From the NCBI GenBank assembly GCA_013202715.1, contig JABMRF010000018.1, forward strand, positions 14,641-78,640: DNA of 64,000 nucleotides. The letters are read 5' to 3'. Positions within the stretch are counted from its first letter, which is position 1. Each line of letters begins with the position of its first letter. Under the pieces are notes generated by a model that was not told the origin of the DNA, did not search any database, and worked only from the letters and a program-made list of their open reading frames with translations. The DNA is from Candidatus Kuenenbacteria bacterium (GTDB lineage Bacteria > Patescibacteriota > Patescibacteriia > UBA11705 > JABHMO01). This document shows, piece after piece, positions 5,685 to 63,920 of this stretch. Position numbers and translations under genes: made by a program.

Positions 5685-5730
5685 GGCGCGGATTAAACGG
5701 ATCTAACGCGGATTACGCGGAATCTTATAG
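5685..5730. repeat. family A word-repeat element (cgcggat words), half copy
   Basis: Sequence gcgcggattaaacggatctaacgcggattacgcggaa. Confidence 0.6.
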
Positions 5731-5747
5731 AATACTGCATTAATGTT

Positions 5748-6656
5748 TTAATGTTTTAATGTTTTAATGTCTTCTTCTTTATTACTGTCAGTATTTTCAA
5801 CAATTTGTTTTGGTTCTTCAGGTGTTTCTGGCTCGATAACTTCTGCTTTTTCGCCCTTTGGACCCATGCCCTCCGGTGGAATGACTTCGACTCCGGTTGG
5901 ATCCTTTTTTCTAAACATTAACTTTTGCTGAGCTGAAGTAAAGACAGTTGTCAAAAACCAATAGAAGGTCAGACCACCCGGCAGGCTCATCCCAATTAGA
6001 ACTGTCATAAACGGCATAAAATACTGCATGCTCTTGTTCATGTTGGCCATGATGCCCTCATCCTTCGCTCCCTTTACATTCGGCTGCTTTTTGCTCATAA
6101 GCATGCGGGTCTGAACATACTGAGCCAAACCTGCCAATATCGCAAGAGCGATACTCGGAGCAGCAAAATCCATAAAACCAAAAGCCATTGTATTGATATG
6201 CTCTGGGTTATGAACAAAAGAATAGAGCATGTCAAACTTCTGTGAAGTTAAACCAACTCTAAACGCCTGATAAACAGCAATCAAAAACGGAAACTGGATC
6301 AAGAGAGGTAAACATGAAGAAAGCGGATTAACTTTTTGCTCTTTGTAAAGCTTCATTGTTTCCGCCGCAAGTTTTTCTTTTTCATCTTTGTATTTCTTTT
6401 TCAATGCATCCATTTTGGGTTGCAATTCCTGCAGTGCTTTTTGGGAACGAACCGCTTGCAGACTCAACGGCAAAAGAATTAGTTTAACAACAATAGTTAA
6501 CAAAATAATTGCCAAACCAATATCATTATAGGGAACAATATTATAAAGCCAAACTAACAAATTAAAAATTGGCTCGTAAAGAATTGTATTGTATAACTCC
6601 ATCATATAGGGCGCGGAGAGAACGGATCTAACGCGGATATTGCGGATGGACATCAA
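5748..6656 (-). CDS. yidC: membrane protein insertase YidC
   Basis: YidC/Oxa1 core sequence ..IVVKLILLPLSLQAVRSQKALQELQPKMDALKKKY..NPLSSCLPLLIQFPFLIAVYQ.. The true start is probably near 6605 (MMELYN). The annotated N-terminus reads through a family A repeat at 6609-6648. Confidence 0.85.
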   Translation of the reverse strand: MMSIRNIRVRSVLSAPYMMELYNTILYEPIFNLLVWLYNIVPYNDIGLAIILLTIVVKLILLPLSLQAVRSQKALQELQPKMDALKKKYKDEKEKLAAETMKLYKEQKVNPLSSCLPLLIQFPFLIAVYQAFRVGLTSQKFDMLYSFVHNPEHINTMAFGFMDFAAPSIALAILAGLAQYVQTRMLMSKKQPNVKGAKDEGIMANMNKSMQYFMPFMTVLIGMSLPGGLTFYWFLTTVFTSAQQKLMFRKKDPTGVEVIPPEGMGPKGEKAEVIEPETPEEPKQIVENTDSNKEEDIKTLKH

Positions 6657-9820: not shown

Positions 9821-9927
9821 ATAAACGCGGATCCACACGGATCAAACGCGGATAATGCGGACCTAAGAAAAAACTTCTTAGTAAATTCCGTTCAATCCGC
9901 GTTATATCCGCTTAATCCGCGCCCCCT
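9821..9927. repeat. family A word-repeat element, full imperfect palindrome
   Basis: Left arm aaacgcggatccacacggatcaaacgcggataatgcgga, right arm ccgttcaatccgcgttatatccgcttaatccgcg. Confidence 0.65.
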
Positions 9928-10266: not shown

Positions 10267-10830
10267 ATGCTAGACATTTCACAAATCCGTCTAGGAACCG
10301 TAGTAAAGCACGACAACGAACCATACGTTGTTACTTCTTGTGCTCAAAAACAGGTTGGCCGAGGTGGATCAATCAAAGTAATAAAAATCAAAAACCTAAT
10401 TTCCGGAAAAGTCTTGGAAATGACAATTCAGGGAAACACAAAAATGGCAGAAGCGGATTTATCCAGAACAAAAGCAACCTTTTTATATACTGAAGGAGGT
10501 GAGTCTCATTTTATGGACTCAGAATCCTATGAACAGTTCAGTTTGGAAAAAGAAAATGTTGGCGATGGAATCAACTATCTAAAAGACGGAACTGACGTTA
10601 CTGTTTTGAATTTTGAAAGCAAACCGGTTTCAGTTCAAGTCCCGCCAAAGGTAAAGCTCGAAGTGGTTGAATCTCCTCCGGGCGTTCGCGGCGACTCAGT
10701 TGGGACTGCCACAAAAACAATCAAGCTTGAAACTGGATTTGAAGTCAATGCTCCACTTTTCATCAAGAAAGGCGACTCAGTTATTATTAATACTGACACA
10801 GGGCAATACGTTGAGAGAGCGAAGAGTTAA
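10267..10830 (+). CDS. efp: elongation factor P
   Basis: Aligns along its full length to E. coli EF-P. The loop equivalent to KPGKG reads QVGRGGS, so the site modified as Lys34 in E. coli is an Arg here. Confidence 0.9.
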   Translation: MLDISQIRLGTVVKHDNEPYVVTSCAQKQVGRGGSIKVIKIKNLISGKVLEMTIQGNTKMAEADLSRTKATFLYTEGGESHFMDSESYEQFSLEKENVGDGINYLKDGTDVTVLNFESKPVSVQVPPKVKLEVVESPPGVRGDSVGTATKTIKLETGFEVNAPLFIKKGDSVIINTDTGQYVERAKS

Positions 10831-10831
10831 A

Positions 10832-10862
10832 ATGTAAAAGGTAAAATGTAAAAGTATTTTAG
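10832..10862. repeat. family D word repeat (gtaaaag)
   Basis: Sequence aaaatgtaaaaggtaaaatgtaaaagtatttt. Confidence 0.5.
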
Positions 10863-11247: not shown

Positions 11248-11249
11248 CT

Positions 11250-15817: not shown

Positions 15818-15865
15818 AATATTTATTTCAGAAACCTAAGCATGGAAATGCTCCTGAAAATTAGT

Positions 15866-15950
15866 TTTTATGTAAAATGTAAAAGTTAAAAGTATTATTG
15901 GGCCCTATTACTATTAACTTTTACTTTTTACCTTTTACCTATTTTATTCT
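15866..15950. repeat. family D palindromic word repeat (gtaaaag / cttttac)
   Basis: Left arm tgtaaaatgtaaaagttaaaagta, right arm tattaacttttactttttaccttttacc. Confidence 0.6.
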
Positions 15951-16629: not shown

Positions 16630-16736
16630 TCGCGGATAAAGCGGATCTAACGCGGATAATTCGGACTGCGTTGATTAAAATAACTCACATAATCAATGCA
16701 CTCCGTTATATCCGCATATAATCCGTAAAATCCGCG
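16630..16736. repeat. family A word-repeat element, full palindrome with about 40 nt spacer
   Basis: Left arm cgcggataaagcggatctaacgcggataattcgga, right arm ccgttatatccgcatataatccgtaaaatccgcg. Confidence 0.65.
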
Positions 16737-19169
16737 TCAATAAATTTCGTCTTCAGTACTAGTTCTTTTTTTCTTTTTTGGACTTTCGTCTACTTCTTCT
16801 TCCTCATCCTCCTCGTCTTCTTCATATTCTTCATCTTCTACTTCTTCTTCTGTCTCGTCATCTTCCGCCTCATCATCCTCTGCCTCTTCTTCATTTTCCT
16901 CATCATCTTCCTCGTATTCTTCTTCTGTATTTTCGTCTTCGTATTCTTCTTCATCATCCTCTTCTTCGTCATCTTCCTGTACAGCTTCTTGGCTATGATC
17001 AAATGATTCTTGTTGCGCCATTGCATTAACTTTGTCAACCAAAATCTCACGCGGACGTGCGCCATCTGCTGGTCCGACTATTCCGGCGTCTTCCAATAGG
17101 TCAATCAAACGAGCTGCTCGCGCATATCCAACCCTCAGCCTCCGCTGAAGAAGAGAGGCAGATGCTTTGCCGGCTTGAATAACCAACTGTTTTGCTTCAT
17201 TAAATAAATCATCTTCCCCGCCTCCCTTGAAATCAAAGCTGGTTGACCCGGAACTACTCGGCTTGCTGGTCACGTCATCTAAATATTGTTCTTGACCTCC
17301 AGAGGCCTTTTTCAGAAAATCAACAACCTTTTTGATTTCATTATCACTGACAAAGGCGCCTTGCAATCGACGTGGCTTTGCAGTTTGCGGAGTCATAAAC
17401 AAGCAATCACCTTTTCCAACTAATTTTTCTGCACCTGAAGAATCAAGAATTGTTCTCGAGTCCATCAAAGAGGCTACACTAAACGCCACTCGACATGGAA
17501 TATTTGCTTTGATAAGTCCTGTAATAACATCTACTGACGGCCTCTGTGTTGCTACAACCATATGAATGCCCACAGCTCGCGCCATCTGAGTCAAGCGAAT
17601 AATGCATCCTTCAACTTCTGCCGCGGCGGCAACCATCAAGTCCGCTAATTCGTCAATTATTATTACAATGTAAGGCATTTTTTCTTTGGCCGTTAGATTG
17701 TAACTGGCGATATTTCGTTTCTTGGCTTTAGCAAGTGTGTCAAAGCGAGAATCCATTTCACTGATTGCCCAGCGCAGAGAATAAACCGTTTTTGTTACAT
17801 CAGTAATAACCGGGGTTAATAAGTGAGGAATTCCGTTATAAACAGGAAACTCCACCCTCTTCGGATCAACTAAAATAAATCGCAGGTTATCAGGATTGTT
17901 CTGATACAACAAACTCATGATTATTGCATTTAAACAAACACTCTTACCGGATCCAGTAGCACCGGCAACTAACATGTGAGGCATTGATGATAAATCCTCT
18001 ATCCAGCATTTTCCACTAACATCTTTTCCTAGAGCAACCGACAAATTTGTTTTTCTGTTTTTAAATGTCTTGGTCTGCAGGGTTTCTCTAATGCGAACTA
18101 CGGCAGGTTTCTGATTCGGAACTTCGATTCCAACCAATGACTTTCCTGGAATCGGCGCTTCAATTCTAATCGGATGAGCCGCAAGAGCCAAAGCCAAATC
18201 ATTTCCAAGTGTTGTAATTTTTGAAAGCTTGATTCCTTCTGCCGGCTTCAAGGTGTATTGTGTAACTGTAGGGCCGACCTGGACTGCGCCCATTTCTACA
18301 TCGATATTAAAATTTGCCAATGTTCTGTGAATTCTCTCTGAGCCGACCTTGATATCTCCGCTGGTTGGTTTTGAGCGTTTATCATCAAGAAGACTGAGAG
18401 GTAAATCAATTTTAATTTTTGGCGCTATAATTTTTGACTTCCCCTCTGGCTGACCCCTAGACACGAGGGTACTGGAAGAGACTTTGACATCGCGCACTCG
18501 CGTTGGACTTTCATCCTCGTATTCTTCCTCGTCTTCCTCCTCTTCATATTCCTCCTCGTCATCTTCTTCATCACCATCTTCCATTTCTTTTTTTCTAAAA
18601 CCAAGCCCCCTGAAATCAAATGCATTGGTTTTTTCTAATATTGATTCAAAGCTGGTATTAAACATTAACAAAAATCCCGCAACCAAAAGTCCGATTAAAA
18701 TAATCAAGCTTGCCCAGAATCCCAAATATAACATTAACGGATAATTAACAAGATAACCAATAATTCCGCCTCCCATACCACTAAAAGTTAATTCAAATGA
18801 ATTTGAAAAAGGAATTCTTGAATGAAGTAGACCTTGAAGTCCGATTACAAATAAAAAAATACCAATATAGTTAGGTATTGAAATATCATAACGACTTGGC
18901 CGGGCCAAAACATAACTAAGCAAAACTAAAAACAGAGGGATTAAGTATCTTCCCCAGCCAAAAACAATTCCGAGCGCGTAATCAATATATGTTCCCGCTG
19001 TTCCAGCTAGGCTCAAAAAACTTAAAATGCTAATTATAGAAATTGTAAAAAGTAGAATTACAATAATCCCTTTTTTTGTTTCTGGACTCAGGCTGTAATA
19101 TTCTACATCTTGATAACGGCGTCGCCGCTTTTTTCGTCTTCCCACATTATTTAAAAATGCAAATACCAA
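16737..19169 (-). CDS. ftsK: DNA translocase FtsK/SpoIIIE
   Basis: N-terminal TM domain, motor with Walker A GATGSGKSV and a gamma (winged-helix) domain ..LLQRRLRVGYARAARLIDLLE.. A poly-acidic linker and a long D/E-rich tail follow the gamma domain. Confidence 0.9.
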   Translation of the reverse strand: MVFAFLNNVGRRKKRRRRYQDVEYYSLSPETKKGIIVILLFTISIISILSFLSLAGTAGTYIDYALGIVFGWGRYLIPLFLVLLSYVLARPSRYDISIPNYIGIFLFVIGLQGLLHSRIPFSNSFELTFSGMGGGIIGYLVNYPLMLYLGFWASLIILIGLLVAGFLLMFNTSFESILEKTNAFDFRGLGFRKKEMEDGDEEDDEEEYEEEEDEEEYEDESPTRVRDVKVSSSTLVSRGQPEGKSKIIAPKIKIDLPLSLLDDKRSKPTSGDIKVGSERIHRTLANFNIDVEMGAVQVGPTVTQYTLKPAEGIKLSKITTLGNDLALALAAHPIRIEAPIPGKSLVGIEVPNQKPAVVRIRETLQTKTFKNRKTNLSVALGKDVSGKCWIEDLSSMPHMLVAGATGSGKSVCLNAIIMSLLYQNNPDNLRFILVDPKRVEFPVYNGIPHLLTPVITDVTKTVYSLRWAISEMDSRFDTLAKAKKRNIASYNLTAKEKMPYIVIIIDELADLMVAAAAEVEGCIIRLTQMARAVGIHMVVATQRPSVDVITGLIKANIPCRVAFSVASLMDSRTILDSSGAEKLVGKGDCLFMTPQTAKPRRLQGAFVSDNEIKKVVDFLKKASGGQEQYLDDVTSKPSSSGSTSFDFKGGGEDDLFNEAKQLVIQAGKASASLLQRRLRVGYARAARLIDLLEDAGIVGPADGARPREILVDKVNAMAQQESFDHSQEAVQEDDEEEDDEEEYEDENTEEEYEEDDEENEEEAEDDEAEDDETEEEVEDEEYEEDEEDEEEEVDESPKKKKRTSTEDEIY

Positions 19170-19377
19170 AGAACAAATGGCAAATTATGAATTTGTCATT
19201 AAATTGTCATTCAGCATTTGTCATTAGTCATTTTCTCGTGTCTATATAGACCATTTTACCATATTGAGAAAAGATACACAATAATCAGAGACATCTAAAC
19301 GAGATAAACCTATCTTCGTTGAAACTATGACAGGCAGGCGGGATAAACAAGAGAGAGAAAAAACCGATTAAGGTAAG

Positions 19378-19420
19378 TCCGCTTCAATCCGCGTTAGATC
19401 CGCTTTATCCGCATTTATTT
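19378..19420. repeat. family A word repeat (right-arm type)
   Basis: Sequence gtccgcttcaatccgcgttagatccgctttatccgc. Confidence 0.55.
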
Positions 19421-19429
19421 AAAAAAAAG

Positions 19430-19921
19430 GGAAGCAGTTCACACGGAACGGCTCCCTTTAGTTTTCTGGGAAGTCTTCGAAAACTCCCCAAACGAGTAGA
19501 CAAATGTTCTGTAGCAAGTTGAAAGATCAATTTGTATAGGACAGAGTCCTATTTGCTACGGAACGAGGAGAGAGGGGTCCCCTTAGGGTTGTCTACTCAT
19601 TTGGATAGTTTAGTTGAGTTTAGTTTAGTTTAGTTGTAATTTAACTCCCAATAAACTGATGAGGGTGGCGTACGAGCTCTAAATATAAATTGTAGCCCAG
19701 CCTCTCTCCTCATCAATTTGTTAAGAATTAAGAATGAACAACTTACCAGCAAGATGATGAAGAGGATAATAAGGTAGCATTGAGGGCAATAAGAAAAATA
19801 TCTCCCTGTAGACTGCCTTGGTGTTGATGATAGACTCACCAGTTAAATGGGGAAAACCCCAAAGAACTAGTTAAAATCTCTCTCCTCTTTCATCATTTTG
19901 ATGGTAAATTTTGAGGTATTT
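19430..19921 (-). ncRNA. candidate large structured ncRNA, about 490 nt, identity unknown
   Basis: A minus-strand promoter TTGACA(19958-19953)-17-TATAAT(19935-19930) reads into an ORF-free stretch. A hairpin plus T8 terminator (rc of 19425-19460) closes it. Long-range complementary segments are visible (gatgaagaggagag / cctcttcatc). Confidence 0.4.
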
Positions 19922-20040
19922 AATATTGCATTATAGCACATATATTAAATATTGTCAATACCCACCGACTCCTAATCAATATTTTAGCTAAATTTAGAAC
20001 CAAAAACATGCTATTATTCGCTAACAACGTTCAGGTCCAG

Positions 20041-20070
20041 TTGACAAAATGTTTTTGATTGTTTATAATA
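20041..20070 (+). promoter_or_regulatory. promoter TTGACA-17-TATAAT for clpP
   Basis: Sequence ttgacaaaatgtttttgattgtttataat. Confidence 0.5.
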
Positions 20071-20097
20071 ATCTGTTATAATAGAGGAAGTTGATAG

Positions 20098-20168
20098 TTA
20101 AAATGTCAAATGTAAAAGTATAAAAAATTCAGGATAAGTTACTTTTACCTTTTACCTTTTATTTATTA
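20098..20168. repeat. family D palindromic word repeat
   Basis: Left arm aaaatgtcaaatgtaaaagtat, right arm ttacttttaccttttacctttt. Confidence 0.55.
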
Positions 20169-20179
20169 ACTAAATTTTT

Positions 20180-20752
20180 ATGCACTTAATTCCAACAGTA
20201 GTAGAAAAAACACATCATGGCGAAAGAGCTTATGATATTTATTCTCGTTTGCTAAAAGAGAGAATTATTTTTTTGGGAACTCCAATTGACGACCAGGTAG
20301 CGAATTCTGTAATAGCCCAGCTTTTATATTTAGAAAGCGAAGATCCAAAAAAAGATATTAAAATTTACATCAATTCTCCAGGCGGTTCAGTTAGCGCTGG
20401 CCTCGCAATTTACGATACCATGCAGTATATAAAACCTGATGTAATGACAATCTGTGTTGGCATGGCCGCAAGTATGGGATCCCTACTTTTGACTGCCGGT
20501 ACCAAGGGAAAACGCCTTTCCCTGCCAAATTCCAAAGTAATGATTCACCAGGTAATGGGTGGTGCTCAAGGCCAGGCAAGTGATATTAAGATTCAAGCTG
20601 AGGAGATTTTGAAAGTAAAAGAAAACCTAAATCACATCCTAGCTAAACATACTGGACAACCCCTAGCAAAAGTTGAAAAAGATTCAGATCGAGATAACTA
20701 TATGTCAGCCGAGGAAGCAAGAAAGTACGGGTTGATCGATAAGATCATATGA
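20180..20752 (+). CDS. clpP: ATP-dependent Clp protease proteolytic subunit
   Basis: Core sequence ..[57 protein letters not shown].. Confidence 0.95.
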
Positions 20753-20830: not shown

Positions 20831-21264
20831 GGATATTCTGAGGATAAAGTCTTTATAACTCAAGGGTAGTCCTTAGTTCCATAAAATGATATAATAAAAG
20901 TAGTTCATTATACAGGGGGGAACTACTTTTTATTTGCCGTAAATTTTTATCTAATTTTAGATAAATAGTACGAAATGTTGTCAGGTCTTGACAAATTTTT
21001 TAGGGTATGCTAGAATACTTAGTTGACATGTCTACAGCTATTTGCTACTATATTATGAAATCCTCTTTTCATGGACAGACACGACAAGCATGGGATTTTT
21101 ATTTTAGGTAAAATCAGGCGCTTGCGCTCGATTTCGCCTGAATAAAAGTTTCTTGTCTGTCCTTGAAAGGAGGCTTTTTTATTTGCGTGAATTTAAATAT
21201 AACGCCCTTGATTATTTCAAAAAAAACTGCTACCATAATTAAACATTAATAATAAACCTATATT

Positions 21265-22659: not shown

Positions 22660-23022
22660 ATGGAAAATCAAGGATATAAAAACCTACTTGTTTGGCAAAA
22701 GTCCATTATTCTAGTAAAAAATTTGTACCAATTGACATCAACTTTTCCCAAAGATGAAATATATGGTTTAACTTCTCAAATGAGAAGAGCGGGAATTTCT
22801 GTTCCTTCAAATATTGCCGAGGGCTACGGAAGATATTCAAAAAAAGAACTTTGTCGATTTATTAAAATTTCACTAGGATCTAGTGCCGAGCTTGAAACCC
22901 AAGCTATCATAAGTCAGGAGCTAGGCTATATAAACAATGAACAATTACAAAATATATTAGACCAAATAAACGAAGTACAAAAGATGCTGACAGGCTTAAT
23001 GAACTCATCTTCACAAAATTAA
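22660..23022 (+). CDS. four-helix-bundle protein of the 23S rRNA intervening-sequence protein family
   Basis: Contains W.KS..L....Y.LT..FPK.E.YGL.SQ.RRA..S...NIAEG..R.S.KE...F..IS.GS..E, characteristic of this family. Confidence 0.7.
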   Translation: MENQGYKNLLVWQKSIILVKNLYQLTSTFPKDEIYGLTSQMRRAGISVPSNIAEGYGRYSKKELCRFIKISLGSSAELETQAIISQELGYINNEQLQNILDQINEVQKMLTGLMNSSSQN

Positions 23023-35444: not shown

Positions 35445-35480
35445 ACGCGGATCCAGCGGATCAAACGCGGATTAAGCGAA
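35445..35480. repeat. family A word repeat (left-arm type)
   Basis: Sequence acgcggatccagcggatcaaacgcggattaagcgaa. Confidence 0.55.
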
Positions 35481-36748: not shown

Positions 36749-36994
36749 ATCTCTATCTACATTTTACGACACTAAAAACAATAACGCAAGCTCTTGCAAA
36801 ACTTTTAGATCTATGCTAGAATAAACAAGTTAAAAGTAAGAAAATGAAGGTTGATATTTGAGTCTTATTATACATATAATTAAAGGCTATACTATAAACT
36901 TTTACATTTTACCTATAAACTAACCCGCCTCTGTGGCTCTCGCTATTGAATATTCATAGAATACTCGGCCGGGCTGTGGAAAGCGACAAAAAAC

Positions 36995-61871: not shown

Positions 61872-61905
61872 TTTAGCCAAGCCCTTGACAAATTAAAAAA
61901 TGTTT
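61872..61905 (+). promoter_or_regulatory. promoter TTGACA-17-TATAAT followed by a leader hairpin
   Basis: Sequence cccttgacaaattaaaaaatgtttgatataat. A leader hairpin atgagtgtctttttctgagacgctcat plus T-run lies at 61953-61990. Confidence 0.45.
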
Positions 61906-62312: not shown

Positions 62313-63920
62313 ATGACACACCACAAACACCTGTCTTACTTTTGGAACACTGAGAAAGCTAAGGCCAAAATTAAAGAAAATAAAATCTACCGAAAAGCCA
62401 AAGACGAAACGTCCGCTTTTCATGTTTTTGGGCACGTTTTATTTTCCTTAATTATAGTCGCAACTGCTGCAGTAAGTTTGAATATTGTAGAAAAAGGTGT
62501 AAATGAACCAAAACAAACCTTTAACAAGGTTATGGGGGTACAAATTGTACTTGCTGCAGAAAATATAAATCAAGCGGAATTAACAGCGCAATCACACGCA
62601 CAGCTCAATATTAAACCAAATGAAGCATTTACATTCAATTTAAGTTTTGAGAATACTGGAATGTCTACCTGGACAAAAGAAACCGTATATCTAAAGTCCA
62701 TATCAACTTCTCTAAAATTCAAACATGAGTACTGGCCTGATCCATATCATCCGGCTCAACTGATTGAAGAGAGCGTTGCACCAGGTGAAACTGGGACATT
62801 TAAATTTGCCCTAAAAGCACCAAAGAAATTTTCCAATCACAAGGGAGATTTTTTATTGGTTAATGACAATGTCATGATCAAAGGAGGAAAAGTGGAAATT
62901 GAAATGAACGTTGTTGAAGATCCGGCAAATTACAAATCCGCCACTAAAATTGTTACCGAAACGACAAACCCAAAACTAAATGTGTGTAATTTAAAATTAA
63001 ATATTGCTAGTGTCAACAGTAGCCTTGATAATGAAACGTGCGTTGAAAAATTTGCCCTGAATGAAGATGGCCCAGATGTTAGAGTCGGACTATTTTATAC
63101 AGACAAAATGATATCTATCAAAAATACAGCAGCCTGGCAAATTTACGACGATAACAATAAACTTTTGGCCTCAATTCCAGCTGAAACCATAATTACCTTA
63201 AACTATATTGATGCAAAAAAAGAATTTGCTTTTGATCTTATTAGTAAGGCAAAGACCGTACGCAGTTTAACCAACCTTACTTTAAAAAACTTCAATCAGG
63301 GTATTTGGGAAATTACAACACTCGAAGACAGACCAAGTTGGAACAAAACAATTAATTATAATAAATTCACGGGAAACCTAGCTCTTAAATTTAATGACTA
63401 CAAAGAAAGAGTGTGGCTTATTGAAACCCTACCGTTGGAAAAATATTTAAAAGGCCTAAAAGAAAGTTCAAACCCGGACCCAATAGAATATCACAAAGCA
63501 CAAGTAACAGCGGCCAGAACCTACGCTCTGTACCATGTCAATAAATTCAAAATTGAGGACAGCCTCTTCGACCTTTACACAGACGAAAAAGATCAGGTTT
63601 ACAAAGGTTACGCAGCAGAACAAATCATGAAAAATCAAGTCAAAGCGGTTGAAGACACACGCGGTGTTATTGCAACTTTTGATAATAGCGTGATTGTGGC
63701 CTATTATTCCGCCAGAAGCGGAGGCCAAACTATTACCCATAAAAGTATCCCCTATTTAAAATCAGTCAAGACGCCATATACAGCGGGAAAAGGCCTTTAT
63801 GGTCATGCGATTGGGATGGATCAGGTTGATGCAAAAAACCGAGCAGAAAAAGATAGCTGGACCTATGACCAAATATTAAAATATTATTACACGGGAATCA
63901 AATTAGAAAAGATTTATTAG
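62313..63920 (+). CDS. SpoIID/LytB-domain protein with N-terminal TM anchor
   Basis: The C-terminal ..VTAARTYALYH......DLY.D..DQVYKGY......V..AV..T.G.V..........YSA.SGGQT.. is the SpoIID/LytB signature. Confidence 0.65.
   Translation: MTHHKHLSYFWNTEKAKAKIKENKIYRKAKDETSAFHVFGHVLFSLIIVATAAVSLNIVEKGVNEPKQTFNKVMGVQIVLAAENINQAELTAQSHAQLNIKPNEAFTFNLSFENTGMSTWTKETVYLKSISTSLKFKHEYWPDPYHPAQLIEESVAPGETGTFKFALKAPKKFSNHKGDFLLVNDNVMIKGGKVEIEMNVVEDPANYKSATKIVTETTNPKLNVCNLKLNIASVNSSLDNETCVEKFALNEDGPDVRVGLFYTDKMISIKNTAAWQIYDDNNKLLASIPAETIITLNYIDAKKEFAFDLISKAKTVRSLTNLTLKNFNQGIWEITTLEDRPSWNKTINYNKFTGNLALKFNDYKERVWLIETLPLEKYLKGLKESSNPDPIEYHKAQVTAARTYALYHVNKFKIEDSLFDLYTDEKDQVYKGYAAEQIMKNQVKAVEDTRGVIATFDNSVIVAYYSARSGGQTITHKSIPYLKSVKTPYTAGKGLYGHAIGMDQVDAKNRAEKDSWTYDQILKYYYTGIKLEKIY

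Follow-up and report, generated by a model that had tools for sequence, protein, structure and literature searches.

A putative modular structured RNA gene between ftsK and clpP in a clade of Patescibacteria

A predicted separate transcription unit in the ftsK-clpP gap

The gap between ftsK and clpP in a 64,000-nt stretch of the genome of Candidatus Kuenenbacteria bacterium (assembly GCA_013202715.1, contig JABMRF010000018.1, positions 14,641 to 78,640; this whole stretch is called the window and its own numbering is used throughout) holds a self-contained unit on the minus strand (19958-19421), composed of a promoter, approximately 504 nucleotides predicted to be transcribed and a terminator. 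The unit is very probably a genuine gene of a structured noncoding RNA (ncRNA), and the comparison with homologous loci leads us to favor, with some reserve, the view that it is an independently transcribed and modular member of an undescribed, clade-restricted RNA family. The initial annotation of this DNA had placed the unit at 19430-19958 and had read it as a large folded ncRNA rather than a protein-coding gene. That finding is real and its interpretation is right in kind: the unit was confirmed with minor corrections of its coordinates (the end is now set at 19421), about 14 other distinct contigs share its promoter, terminator and helices, compensatory changes occur in four separate helices, and conservation of any open reading frame (ORF) is absent. 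A trivial untranslated region without conserved structure in the relatives, named in the same annotation as the outcome that would speak against it, is not what was found.

The sigma-70 promoter of the RNA gene (19930-19958, minus strand) consists, as originally described, of a -35 box TTGACA (19958-19953), a 17-nt spacer and a -10 box TATAAT (19935-19930). It matches the consensus at 12 of 12 positions and additionally carries a TG extension (19938-19937), which gives an extended -10 element TGcTATAAT (19938-19930). Perfect TTGACA-N17-TATAAT sites were observed five times in the window, compared with 0.05 expected from shuffled sequences, and are therefore regarded as real promoters, not as AT-rich noise. 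The predicted transcript (19421-19924, minus strand) has its start deduced from the -10 box and its end from the U-run. It ends in an intrinsic terminator (19421-19459, minus strand), in which a bulged hairpin (19459-19429) with the stem AAAGGGAGC.GUUC / GAAC.GCUUCCCUUU and the conserved loop CCGUGUG is directly followed by eight T residues (19428-19421; U8 in the RNA). A hairpin with a T8 run had been reported at 19425-19460; both are real, but the T8 run extends to 19421, and this position, not 19425, is therefore the end of the unit, which gives a transcript of ~504 nt (~19924-19421). A simple pattern scan for terminators missed the hairpin because its loop and bulge exceed the limits of the scan. 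Across the homologs, 12 of the 15 predicted pairs of the terminator helix show compensatory changes.

The unit is flanked by ftsK (16737-19169, minus strand), identified by the Pfam domains FtsK_4TM, FtsK_alpha, FtsK_SpoIIIE and FtsK_gamma, and by clpP (20180-20752, plus strand; Pfam CLP_protease), which has a separate, perfect divergent promoter of its own (20041-20069). The large RNA element is present in a single copy in the window. Besides that of the RNA gene (19958), perfect promoters are located at 11249, 20041, 33228 and 61885; those at 11249 and 33228 stand ahead of short ORFs led by a Shine-Dalgarno (SD) sequence, and the one at 61885 ahead of a short RNA made of a hairpin and a U-run, upstream of the ORF at 62313. 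Most long ORFs of the window have no SD sequence, and several show a -10 box a few nucleotides before the ATG, a sequence arrangement that suggests leaderless mRNAs.

Homologs and distribution of the element

Three public contigs carry an identical locus. Homologs of ClpP with 81-91% identity led to further contigs that keep the order ftsK, ~1-kb gap and clpP, and in these relatives the gap element was recovered by nhmmer with E-values of 1e-41 to 1e-173, the conserved block coinciding with the promoter-to-terminator extent. A metagenome scan with a pattern derived from domain D3 (see below) added 12 loci, all of them full or partial elements and several identical to loci already in the set; this pattern requires the invariant blocks, and more distant members may escape it. 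Removal of duplicates left ~15 distinct sequences, the homologs originating from ~14 other distinct contigs of the Kuenenbacteria/Falkowbacteria type (single loci are referred to below by L numbers). Some of the metagenome-assembled genomes with the element are labelled Falkowbacteria or Parcubacteria. All homologs whose contig includes the 5' end have the promoter TTGACA-17-TGnTAnAnT, and every homolog ends in a hairpin with a U-run.

None of 80 GTDB representative loci examined around clpP, ~20 of them from other Patescibacteria, carries the element; the best ClpP match among the GTDB representatives is 79% identical, ClpP being too conserved as a guide. Scanning of IMG/VR with the D3 pattern gave 0 matches, another pattern scan of IMG/VR gave six chance matches, none with nhmmer similarity, and BLAST against phage and plasmid collections returned only a low-complexity match to an AACTA repeat. 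The D3 covariance model (R1) found no new family members, and its single extra match (L112, 3668-3772) pointed to a small RNA of another kind, which lies downstream of clpP. The RNA family is restricted to the Kuenenbacteria/Falkowbacteria-type clade of Patescibacteria.

Noncoding character and RNA strand

A GTG-initiated ORF at 19630-19839 had been described initially as the only one in the gap. This ORF (69 aa) is present and is the sole one of at least 60 aa, but two shorter ORFs also overlap the unit (41 aa, 19405-19530, minus strand; 33 aa, 19532-19633, plus strand). No ORF of the unit keeps its position, frame or length across 17 homologs, whose own ORFs vary in strand, position, length and start codon, and the indels within conserved stretches have lengths that are not multiples of three. 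A short peptide starting from AUGAUG was considered and dismissed, as neither its frame nor its stop codon is conserved.

The minus strand of the element in the window folds with a minimum free energy (MFE) of -168.9 kcal/mol (z = -9.4), while the z-score of the plus strand is -6.4. The z-scores of the homologs range from -7.6 to -18.8 and are all strongly negative, being rough values from 25 shuffles each. In the closing helices of domains D1 and D3 (D1-P1 and D3-P1), ~55 cells hold G·U and ~8 hold A·C, an imbalance to be expected only with the minus strand as the RNA strand, which is therefore the assignment made here. Under model R1, the sense strand reaches 56-91 bits, as against 17-33 bits for the antisense strand.

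Domain architecture of the RNA

Domain D1 (19740-19910, minus strand) is a three-way-junction module composed of a closing helix P1 of ~23 bp (arms 19889-19910 and 19740-19761) and two variable hairpins, P2 and P3. Changes on both sides are found in 15 of the 23 pairs of P1, and 91.8% of cells are paired; none of 500 shuffles reaches any of the observed measures, and sliding of the register makes pairing collapse to about 40-56%. The P1/P2/P3 layout is present in the MFE folds of all 17 D1 modules, though the sequences of P2 and P3 are unrelated. Purine tract 1, GAGGAGAGAGA (19877-19887, minus strand), occupies the inner end of the 5' strand of P1 and runs into the junction. Its segment GGAGAGAGA is identical in 14 of the 17 D1 modules, with one substitution each in L113, L112 and L115m3, and the exact 10-mer of the tract is confined, within the window, to the RNA element. 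The junction strand J2/3, UCUAUCAUCAAC (19823-19834, minus strand), lies between P2 and P3 and contains the block (A)UCAUCAAC, conserved in alignments A1-A3; it is unpaired or partly paired in the MFE folds and is also complementary to UGAUG of the P1 5' strand. The invariant unpaired strands of the RNA are GAGGAGAGAGA and AUCAUCAAC in D1, and UCUCUCUCCUC and the loop UUGWUCUUU in D3. Two other interpretations were rejected: (i) a box C/D or k-turn reading of the AUGAUGA...CUGA motifs, as the strands form a continuous covarying helix, and (ii) a pairing of J2/3 with the D3 loop, which is inconsistent across the homologs.

Domain D2 (19641-19731, minus strand) is a long hairpin of ~95 nt with 30 predicted pairs (inverted repeat I3), of which 11 show compensatory changes. 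It contains an AGAGA internal loop, a GGC/GCC step, a conserved GYAC bulge and an AU-rich apical loop; its base, UGAUGAGG/CCUCAUCA, together with the AGAGA internal loop, mimics the base of D1. Purine tract 2, GAGGAGAGAGG (19711-19701, minus strand), is located inside D2. The long-range complementary blocks pointed out in the initial annotation are both real; each forms the helix that closes a different domain (inverted repeats I4 and I3) and is backed by covariation. Between D2 and D3, a linker (19607-19640, minus strand) carries an (AACUA)n microsatellite (direct repeat D5), which is specific to this genome and absent from all aligned homologs.

Domain D3 (19486-19606, minus strand) is the second three-way junction. 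Its P1, with the core GAGUAGACAA/UUGUCUACUC and 17 pairs in all, shows compensatory changes in 7 of the 17 pairs and has 98.2% of cells paired; in the shuffles, 0 of 500 reached the observed value for four of five measures, and 7 of 500 for the fifth, further pair types. The domain further has a short purine element (hairpin or strand) and a P3 hairpin. P3, whose conserved loop motif is UUG(A/U)UCUUU (19533-19522), forms in 16/16 sequences from at least 10 different stem sequences. The D3 junction contains the pyrimidine tract (C/U)CUCUCUCCUC (19565-19575, minus strand), an exact complement of the purine tracts, whose CUCUCC core is invariant in 16/16 sequences and in which UCUCUCUCCUC is retained in 12/16. 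The small hairpin D4 (GGGGAGU...ACUUCCC; 19468-19489, minus strand) appears in the centroid fold, and at its position the homologs have a hairpin of different sequence.

The number and order of these parts vary within the family, whose predicted transcripts span ~430-800 nt. Locus L115 (1046-1846) contains three tandem D1-type modules followed by a D2-like hairpin and D3, D2 is entirely absent from L112 (2474-2830), unrelated hairpins of 100-160 nt are inserted between D1 and D2 in L096 and L110, and the purine tract of D2 has been lost in the L100/L105/L106/L111 clade. L085 (2520-2860, minus strand) carries a 290-nt insertion directly before the terminator, which itself is undisturbed. Hairpin tips and linkers drift freely or accept insertions, and helices are kept by compensatory changes. 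In L114 (1418-1699), the promoter and terminator occupy the same site and enclose a 282-nt RNA of weak similarity. As separate observations, the L085 insertion is bounded by 23-nt terminal inverted repeats (GGGTACGGGATTCGAATTAGAAT / ATTCTAATTCGTATCCCGTACCC) and has the look of a miniature inverted-repeat transposable element (MITE), and the L114 RNA contains a GAUCCUCCUUA stretch resembling the 3' end of 16S rRNA.

Complementarity between the purine and pyrimidine tracts

The pyrimidine tract of D3 is complementary to purine tract 2 of D2 at 11 of 11 positions (I9) and to purine tract 1 of D1 at 10 of 11 (I7). Exact copies of GAGGAGAGAG occur three times in the 64 kb, all within the RNA element (two purine tracts and one complement); the number of matches expected with at most one mismatch is 1.8. 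An unbiased scan of the full alignment for stacked complementary columns recovered the D1 and D3 tracts as a 10-pair run. Only L113 has a substituted base in the core of the pyrimidine tract (C to U), and its D1 tract shows the corresponding change of G to A, so that GAGGAGAGAAG in D1 and UUUCUCUCCUC in D3 replace G-C by A-U at the same pair; by a rough estimate, the chance of a second substitution falling on the right position and base is ~0.05. Both tracts are nearly invariant, and covariation between them is therefore scarce. From these sequence relations, the formation of a D1-D3 pseudoknot of 9-11 bp appears an almost evenly balanced possibility.

Comparison with known RNA families

The 4227 models of Rfam 15 were applied at gathering thresholds to the window and 15 homolog loci, and at E<=10 to the 1.15-kb gap (19100-20250). 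The former search assigned the RNA to no family, and the latter gave only chance matches to miRNA and snoRNA models. The identities suggested initially (RNase P RNA, tmRNA, 6S, OLE, GOLLD, ROOL and HEARO) were thus not upheld, none of them being matched in Rfam 15; the same is true of the covariance models of OLE, GOLLD, ROOL, HEARO and raiA taken together. ARAGORN detected tRNAs only and no tmRNA, and a tRNA-like domain with a tag frame was not indicated by either ARAGORN or Rfam. The 6S model (RF00013), a single long helix with a large central bubble, gave no match, and the folds obtained are three-way junctions. Neither RNaseP_bact_a nor RNaseP_bact_b matches; the 5' and 3' ends of the RNA do not pair with each other, its 3' end is a terminator hairpin, and, in place of the invariant core of RNase P RNA, it has a D2 that is absent from L112 and a D1 that is triplicated in L115. 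Literature searches found no description of such an RNA. With a conserved promoter and terminator of its own, and a covarying structure without a conserved frame, the element has the general features of a stand-alone ncRNA gene.

In size and multi-domain covarying structure, the closest known RNAs are the orphan large ncRNAs (OLE, ROOL, GOLLD and the raiA motif), which are likewise several hundred nucleotides long, built of multi-domain covarying helices with short invariant strands between them, noncoding and not obviously cis-regulatory. The present RNA differs from them in its much narrower range (a single clade of Patescibacteria), in a module number that varies between species, and in not being tied to prophages, tRNAs or oap genes. 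Higher-order assembly has been reported for ROOL, GOLLD and OLE (PMC12286853), and the possible self-complementary contact of the present RNA could likewise allow it. TIGR-type guide arrays (PMC12045711) were considered and rejected: the element lacks repeat units of 36 nt, and no Tas gene lies in its neighborhood.

In its repeated, motif-bearing modules, the RNA is closest to sponge and scaffold RNAs. As in CsrB/RsmZ, a stand-alone gene with a strong promoter and an intrinsic terminator encodes repeated units with a purine-rich GGA motif, the number of which differs between species. In contrast to these sponges, the units are three-way junctions of ~165 nt instead of short hairpins, the 2-4 GGA tracts lie at helix/junction boundaries and not in many hairpin loops, and the RNA carries in cis one pyrimidine tract of exactly complementary sequence; none of the CsrB/Rsm models of Rfam matches. 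The tandem glycine riboswitch shares tandem three-way junctions and a GGAGAG-type strand at the P1/junction boundary. Glycine riboswitches have a core of the ACCGAAGGGGCAA type, which is absent from the present RNA; RF00504 gave no match at E<=10, a separate ftsK promoter follows the terminator, and the downstream gene is ftsK, not one of glycine metabolism. Bacterial RNase P RNA is of comparable size, and the purine strand GAGGAGAGAG with its distant complement loosely resembles CR-I/CR-V forming P4, but the present RNA lacks an end-to-end P1 and its core modules are dispensable or duplicated. It also does not behave as a mobile element or MITE, being single-copy in the window and always located at the ftsK/clpP site.

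Possible function and alternative explanations

In the model that we propose, a consensus sigma-70 promoter would drive a separate transcript ending at the conserved intrinsic terminator, and the RNA would fold as D1, a dispensable D2, D3, D4 and the terminator hairpin. It would act in trans and not on ftsK. The purine tract of D1 may pair with the pyrimidine tract of D3 in a long-range pseudoknot clamping the two junctions, and the D1-type modules, present in one to three copies, could be repeated display units for a partner, which might be a protein, a different RNA or additional copies of this RNA itself. With purine tracts in excess, the pyrimidine tract could also link molecules rather than clamp D1 to D3. 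Since the copy number of D1 varies, D2 is dispensable and large insertions are tolerated, display units are favored over a rigid catalytic core; a scaffold or sponge role is accordingly offered here only as a tentative suggestion. A bolder and rather improbable version is an ornate RNA class of ultra-small symbionts, in which one to four purine tracts pair with one pyrimidine tract and form a multimeric RNA or ribonucleoprotein, or a catalytic core. The purine tracts outnumber the pyrimidine tract, and the surplus ones could therefore pair between molecules; if true, this would be a self-assembling RNA or a catalytic core with a cellular role new for any RNA.

Several observations weigh against this model. 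The pseudoknot is supported by one genuine compensatory event, since the three apparent D1-D3 double changes of the covariation scan were affected by a 2-column MAFFT shift in L113 and only one of them remains. The GAGGA part of the D1 tract is already paired in P1, and UGAUG at the D1 5' side is also complementary to the junction CAUCA, which provides a competing alternative. The pyrimidine tract, in turn, can pair locally with an adjacent purine run in most homologs; neither the sequence nor the register of this local partner is constant, and L115 and L112 lack it. No partner protein or target of the RNA emerged. At every locus, ftsK follows the RNA in the same orientation, so that some coupling by read-through is possible. 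Moreover, only ~15 distinct sequences from one narrow clade (ClpP at least ~81% identical) are available, and the invariance of short tracts therefore carries limited weight.

The position ahead of ftsK, seen in 17/17 loci, raises the question of a cis-acting ftsK leader, i.e. an attenuator or riboswitch whose domains sense a signal and set terminator read-through into ftsK, the more so as tandem three-way junctions with conserved junction nucleotides recall aptamers. We consider this improbable. An extended -10 promoter of ftsK, TGGTAAAAT (19253-19261, minus strand), outside the RNA, is located between the RNA terminator and the ftsK start, and a box of this kind (TATGCTAAAAT / TATGATAAAAT / TGGTAAAAT) is conserved at this place in 14/14 loci examined; the presence of this promoter downstream of the terminator indicates an RNA gene, not a leader. 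The spacer between terminator and ftsK measures 48-275 nt, and outside the box its sequence shows no relation from one species to another and is frequently taken up by short repeats peculiar to the species. The 290-nt insertion directly before the terminator is tolerated, Rfam gives no riboswitch match, and reading of the homolog tails revealed no conserved antiterminator alternative; an antiterminator between D4 and the terminator, possible in the window, is not conserved in the homologs. The RNA is thus probably stand-alone or trans-acting rather than an ftsK leader. Among trans-acting mechanisms, the main rival of the scaffold model is a base-pairing small RNA (sRNA), in which the C/U tract UCUCUCUCCUC would be a seed for purine-rich ribosome-binding regions, with GGAGAGAG-like sites near start codons as targets and the internal GAGGAGAGAG tracts as mask or decoy. 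C/U-rich seeds aimed at SD regions are a known sRNA design, the gene is stand-alone with a strong promoter and terminator, and the pyrimidine tract is invariant while its local partner varies or, in L115 and L112, is missing. This explanation is weakened by the scarcity of SD sequences and the lack of obvious targets in the window: most genes there have no SD-like sequence and many are apparently leaderless, no exact GAGGAGAGAG exists outside the RNA, and six sites with one mismatch are not convincingly placed at start codons. An RNA of ~500 nt with two covarying three-way junctions also exceeds the structural need of a seed-bearing sRNA, and on the whole we regard this role as unlikely. A simple SD mimic was dismissed, as the genome rarely uses SD sequences.

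An extremely divergent universal RNA (RNase P RNA, tmRNA, 6S or SRP RNA) missed by the standard models is suggested by a size near that of RNase P RNA and tmRNA, by a long-range purine/pyrimidine helix that recalls P4, and by GAGGAGAGAGGCUGGGCUACAA of D2, which loosely resembles GAGGAAAGUCCGGGCUCCA, the CR-I sequence of RNase P. It is nevertheless the least credible of the explanations: Rfam 15 is negative at E<=10 on the gap and at gathering thresholds in 15 homologs, ARAGORN is negative, the two ends do not pair with each other and the 3' end is a terminator instead of an acceptor stem, the L100 clade has lost the CR-I-like stretch and L112 has no D2 at all, and a varying number of modules would be unexpected for an essential catalytic core. 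Hardly more credible is that the locus is not an RNA gene at all and represents a DNA element (a mobile-element relic, or a replication or segregation site by ftsK) or a small-protein locus. Both strands fold well (plus-strand z = -6.4), gene callers place short ORFs in several homologs, and the GC skew changes sign near 19300-19500, but this change coincides with a switch in gene orientation, and the called ORFs differ in strand, frame and position. In addition, the element is single-copy in the window and occupies a constant syntenic site, has no match in IMG/VR or in phage and plasmid collections, and conserves its promoter and terminator in one orientation; its frequent G·U pairs would become A·C mismatches in the opposite strand or at the level of DNA.

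Patescibacteria (candidate phyla radiation, CPR) have tiny genomes with little spare DNA, and this clade keeps ~0.5 kb behind a consensus promoter for what appears to be a structured RNA despite the small genomes. Large structured ncRNAs are few, and new classes have pointed to unexpected biochemistry (RNase P, OLE, ROOL, GOLLD); to our knowledge, no such class has been described as CPR-specific. The family may be viewed as a natural experiment in modularity, in which D1 occurs one to three times, D2 is optional and insertions are tolerated, and it offers a simple candidate tertiary contact, the 11-nt purine/pyrimidine pairing. The RNA gene could also serve as a marker for the clade. The narrow distribution limits the immediate impact of the finding, and the small alignment tempers its interest.

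Other elements in the vicinity of the RNA gene

For ftsK, the TTG at 19169 probably lies upstream of the true start, as an in-frame GTG at 19145 fits the relatives, whose FtsK proteins start with M-(G/A)-(K/R)-R-K-K, corresponding to that GTG. In L113, the called ftsK start is an ATG within the promoter box TATGATAAAAT. A dispersed intergenic repeat, made of GCGGA units spaced 9-11 nt from start to start, was observed in the window with 12 matches, compared with 0.12 expected; its sites are 19378-19412, 5708-5721, 6633-6646, 9848-9920, 16632-16656 and 35447-35471. One copy directly follows the RNA terminator, and at the equivalent place upstream of the ftsK promoter the relatives carry repeats of CTGTAC, TTCGTAA or ACGCTA units.

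On the other side of the gap, the 5' leader of clpP contains an AT-rich palindromic element (20089-20177) with 32-nt arms that are 81% complementary, and similar intergenic copies are located at 15857-15942, 10825-10856 and 36890-36923. Downstream of tig, a gene of 120 aa (22660-23022, plus strand) matches 23S_rRNA_IVP / bAvd, a family that includes accessory proteins of diversity-generating retroelements.

The 513-nt gap between clpP and tig carries a second candidate small RNA gene (20988-21185, plus strand). Its predicted promoter, TTGACA-17-TGcTAGAAT (20988-21016), is followed by a hairpin of ~115-150 nt closed by GGACAGACA/UUGUCUGUCC, with a U-run near 21180. Rfam gives no match for this candidate. 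Its core is nearly identical in L112 (3620-3790), and the gap after clpP is kept in all relatives, with lengths of 270-580 nt. The closing helix of this second small RNA resembles D3 P1 of the large RNA.

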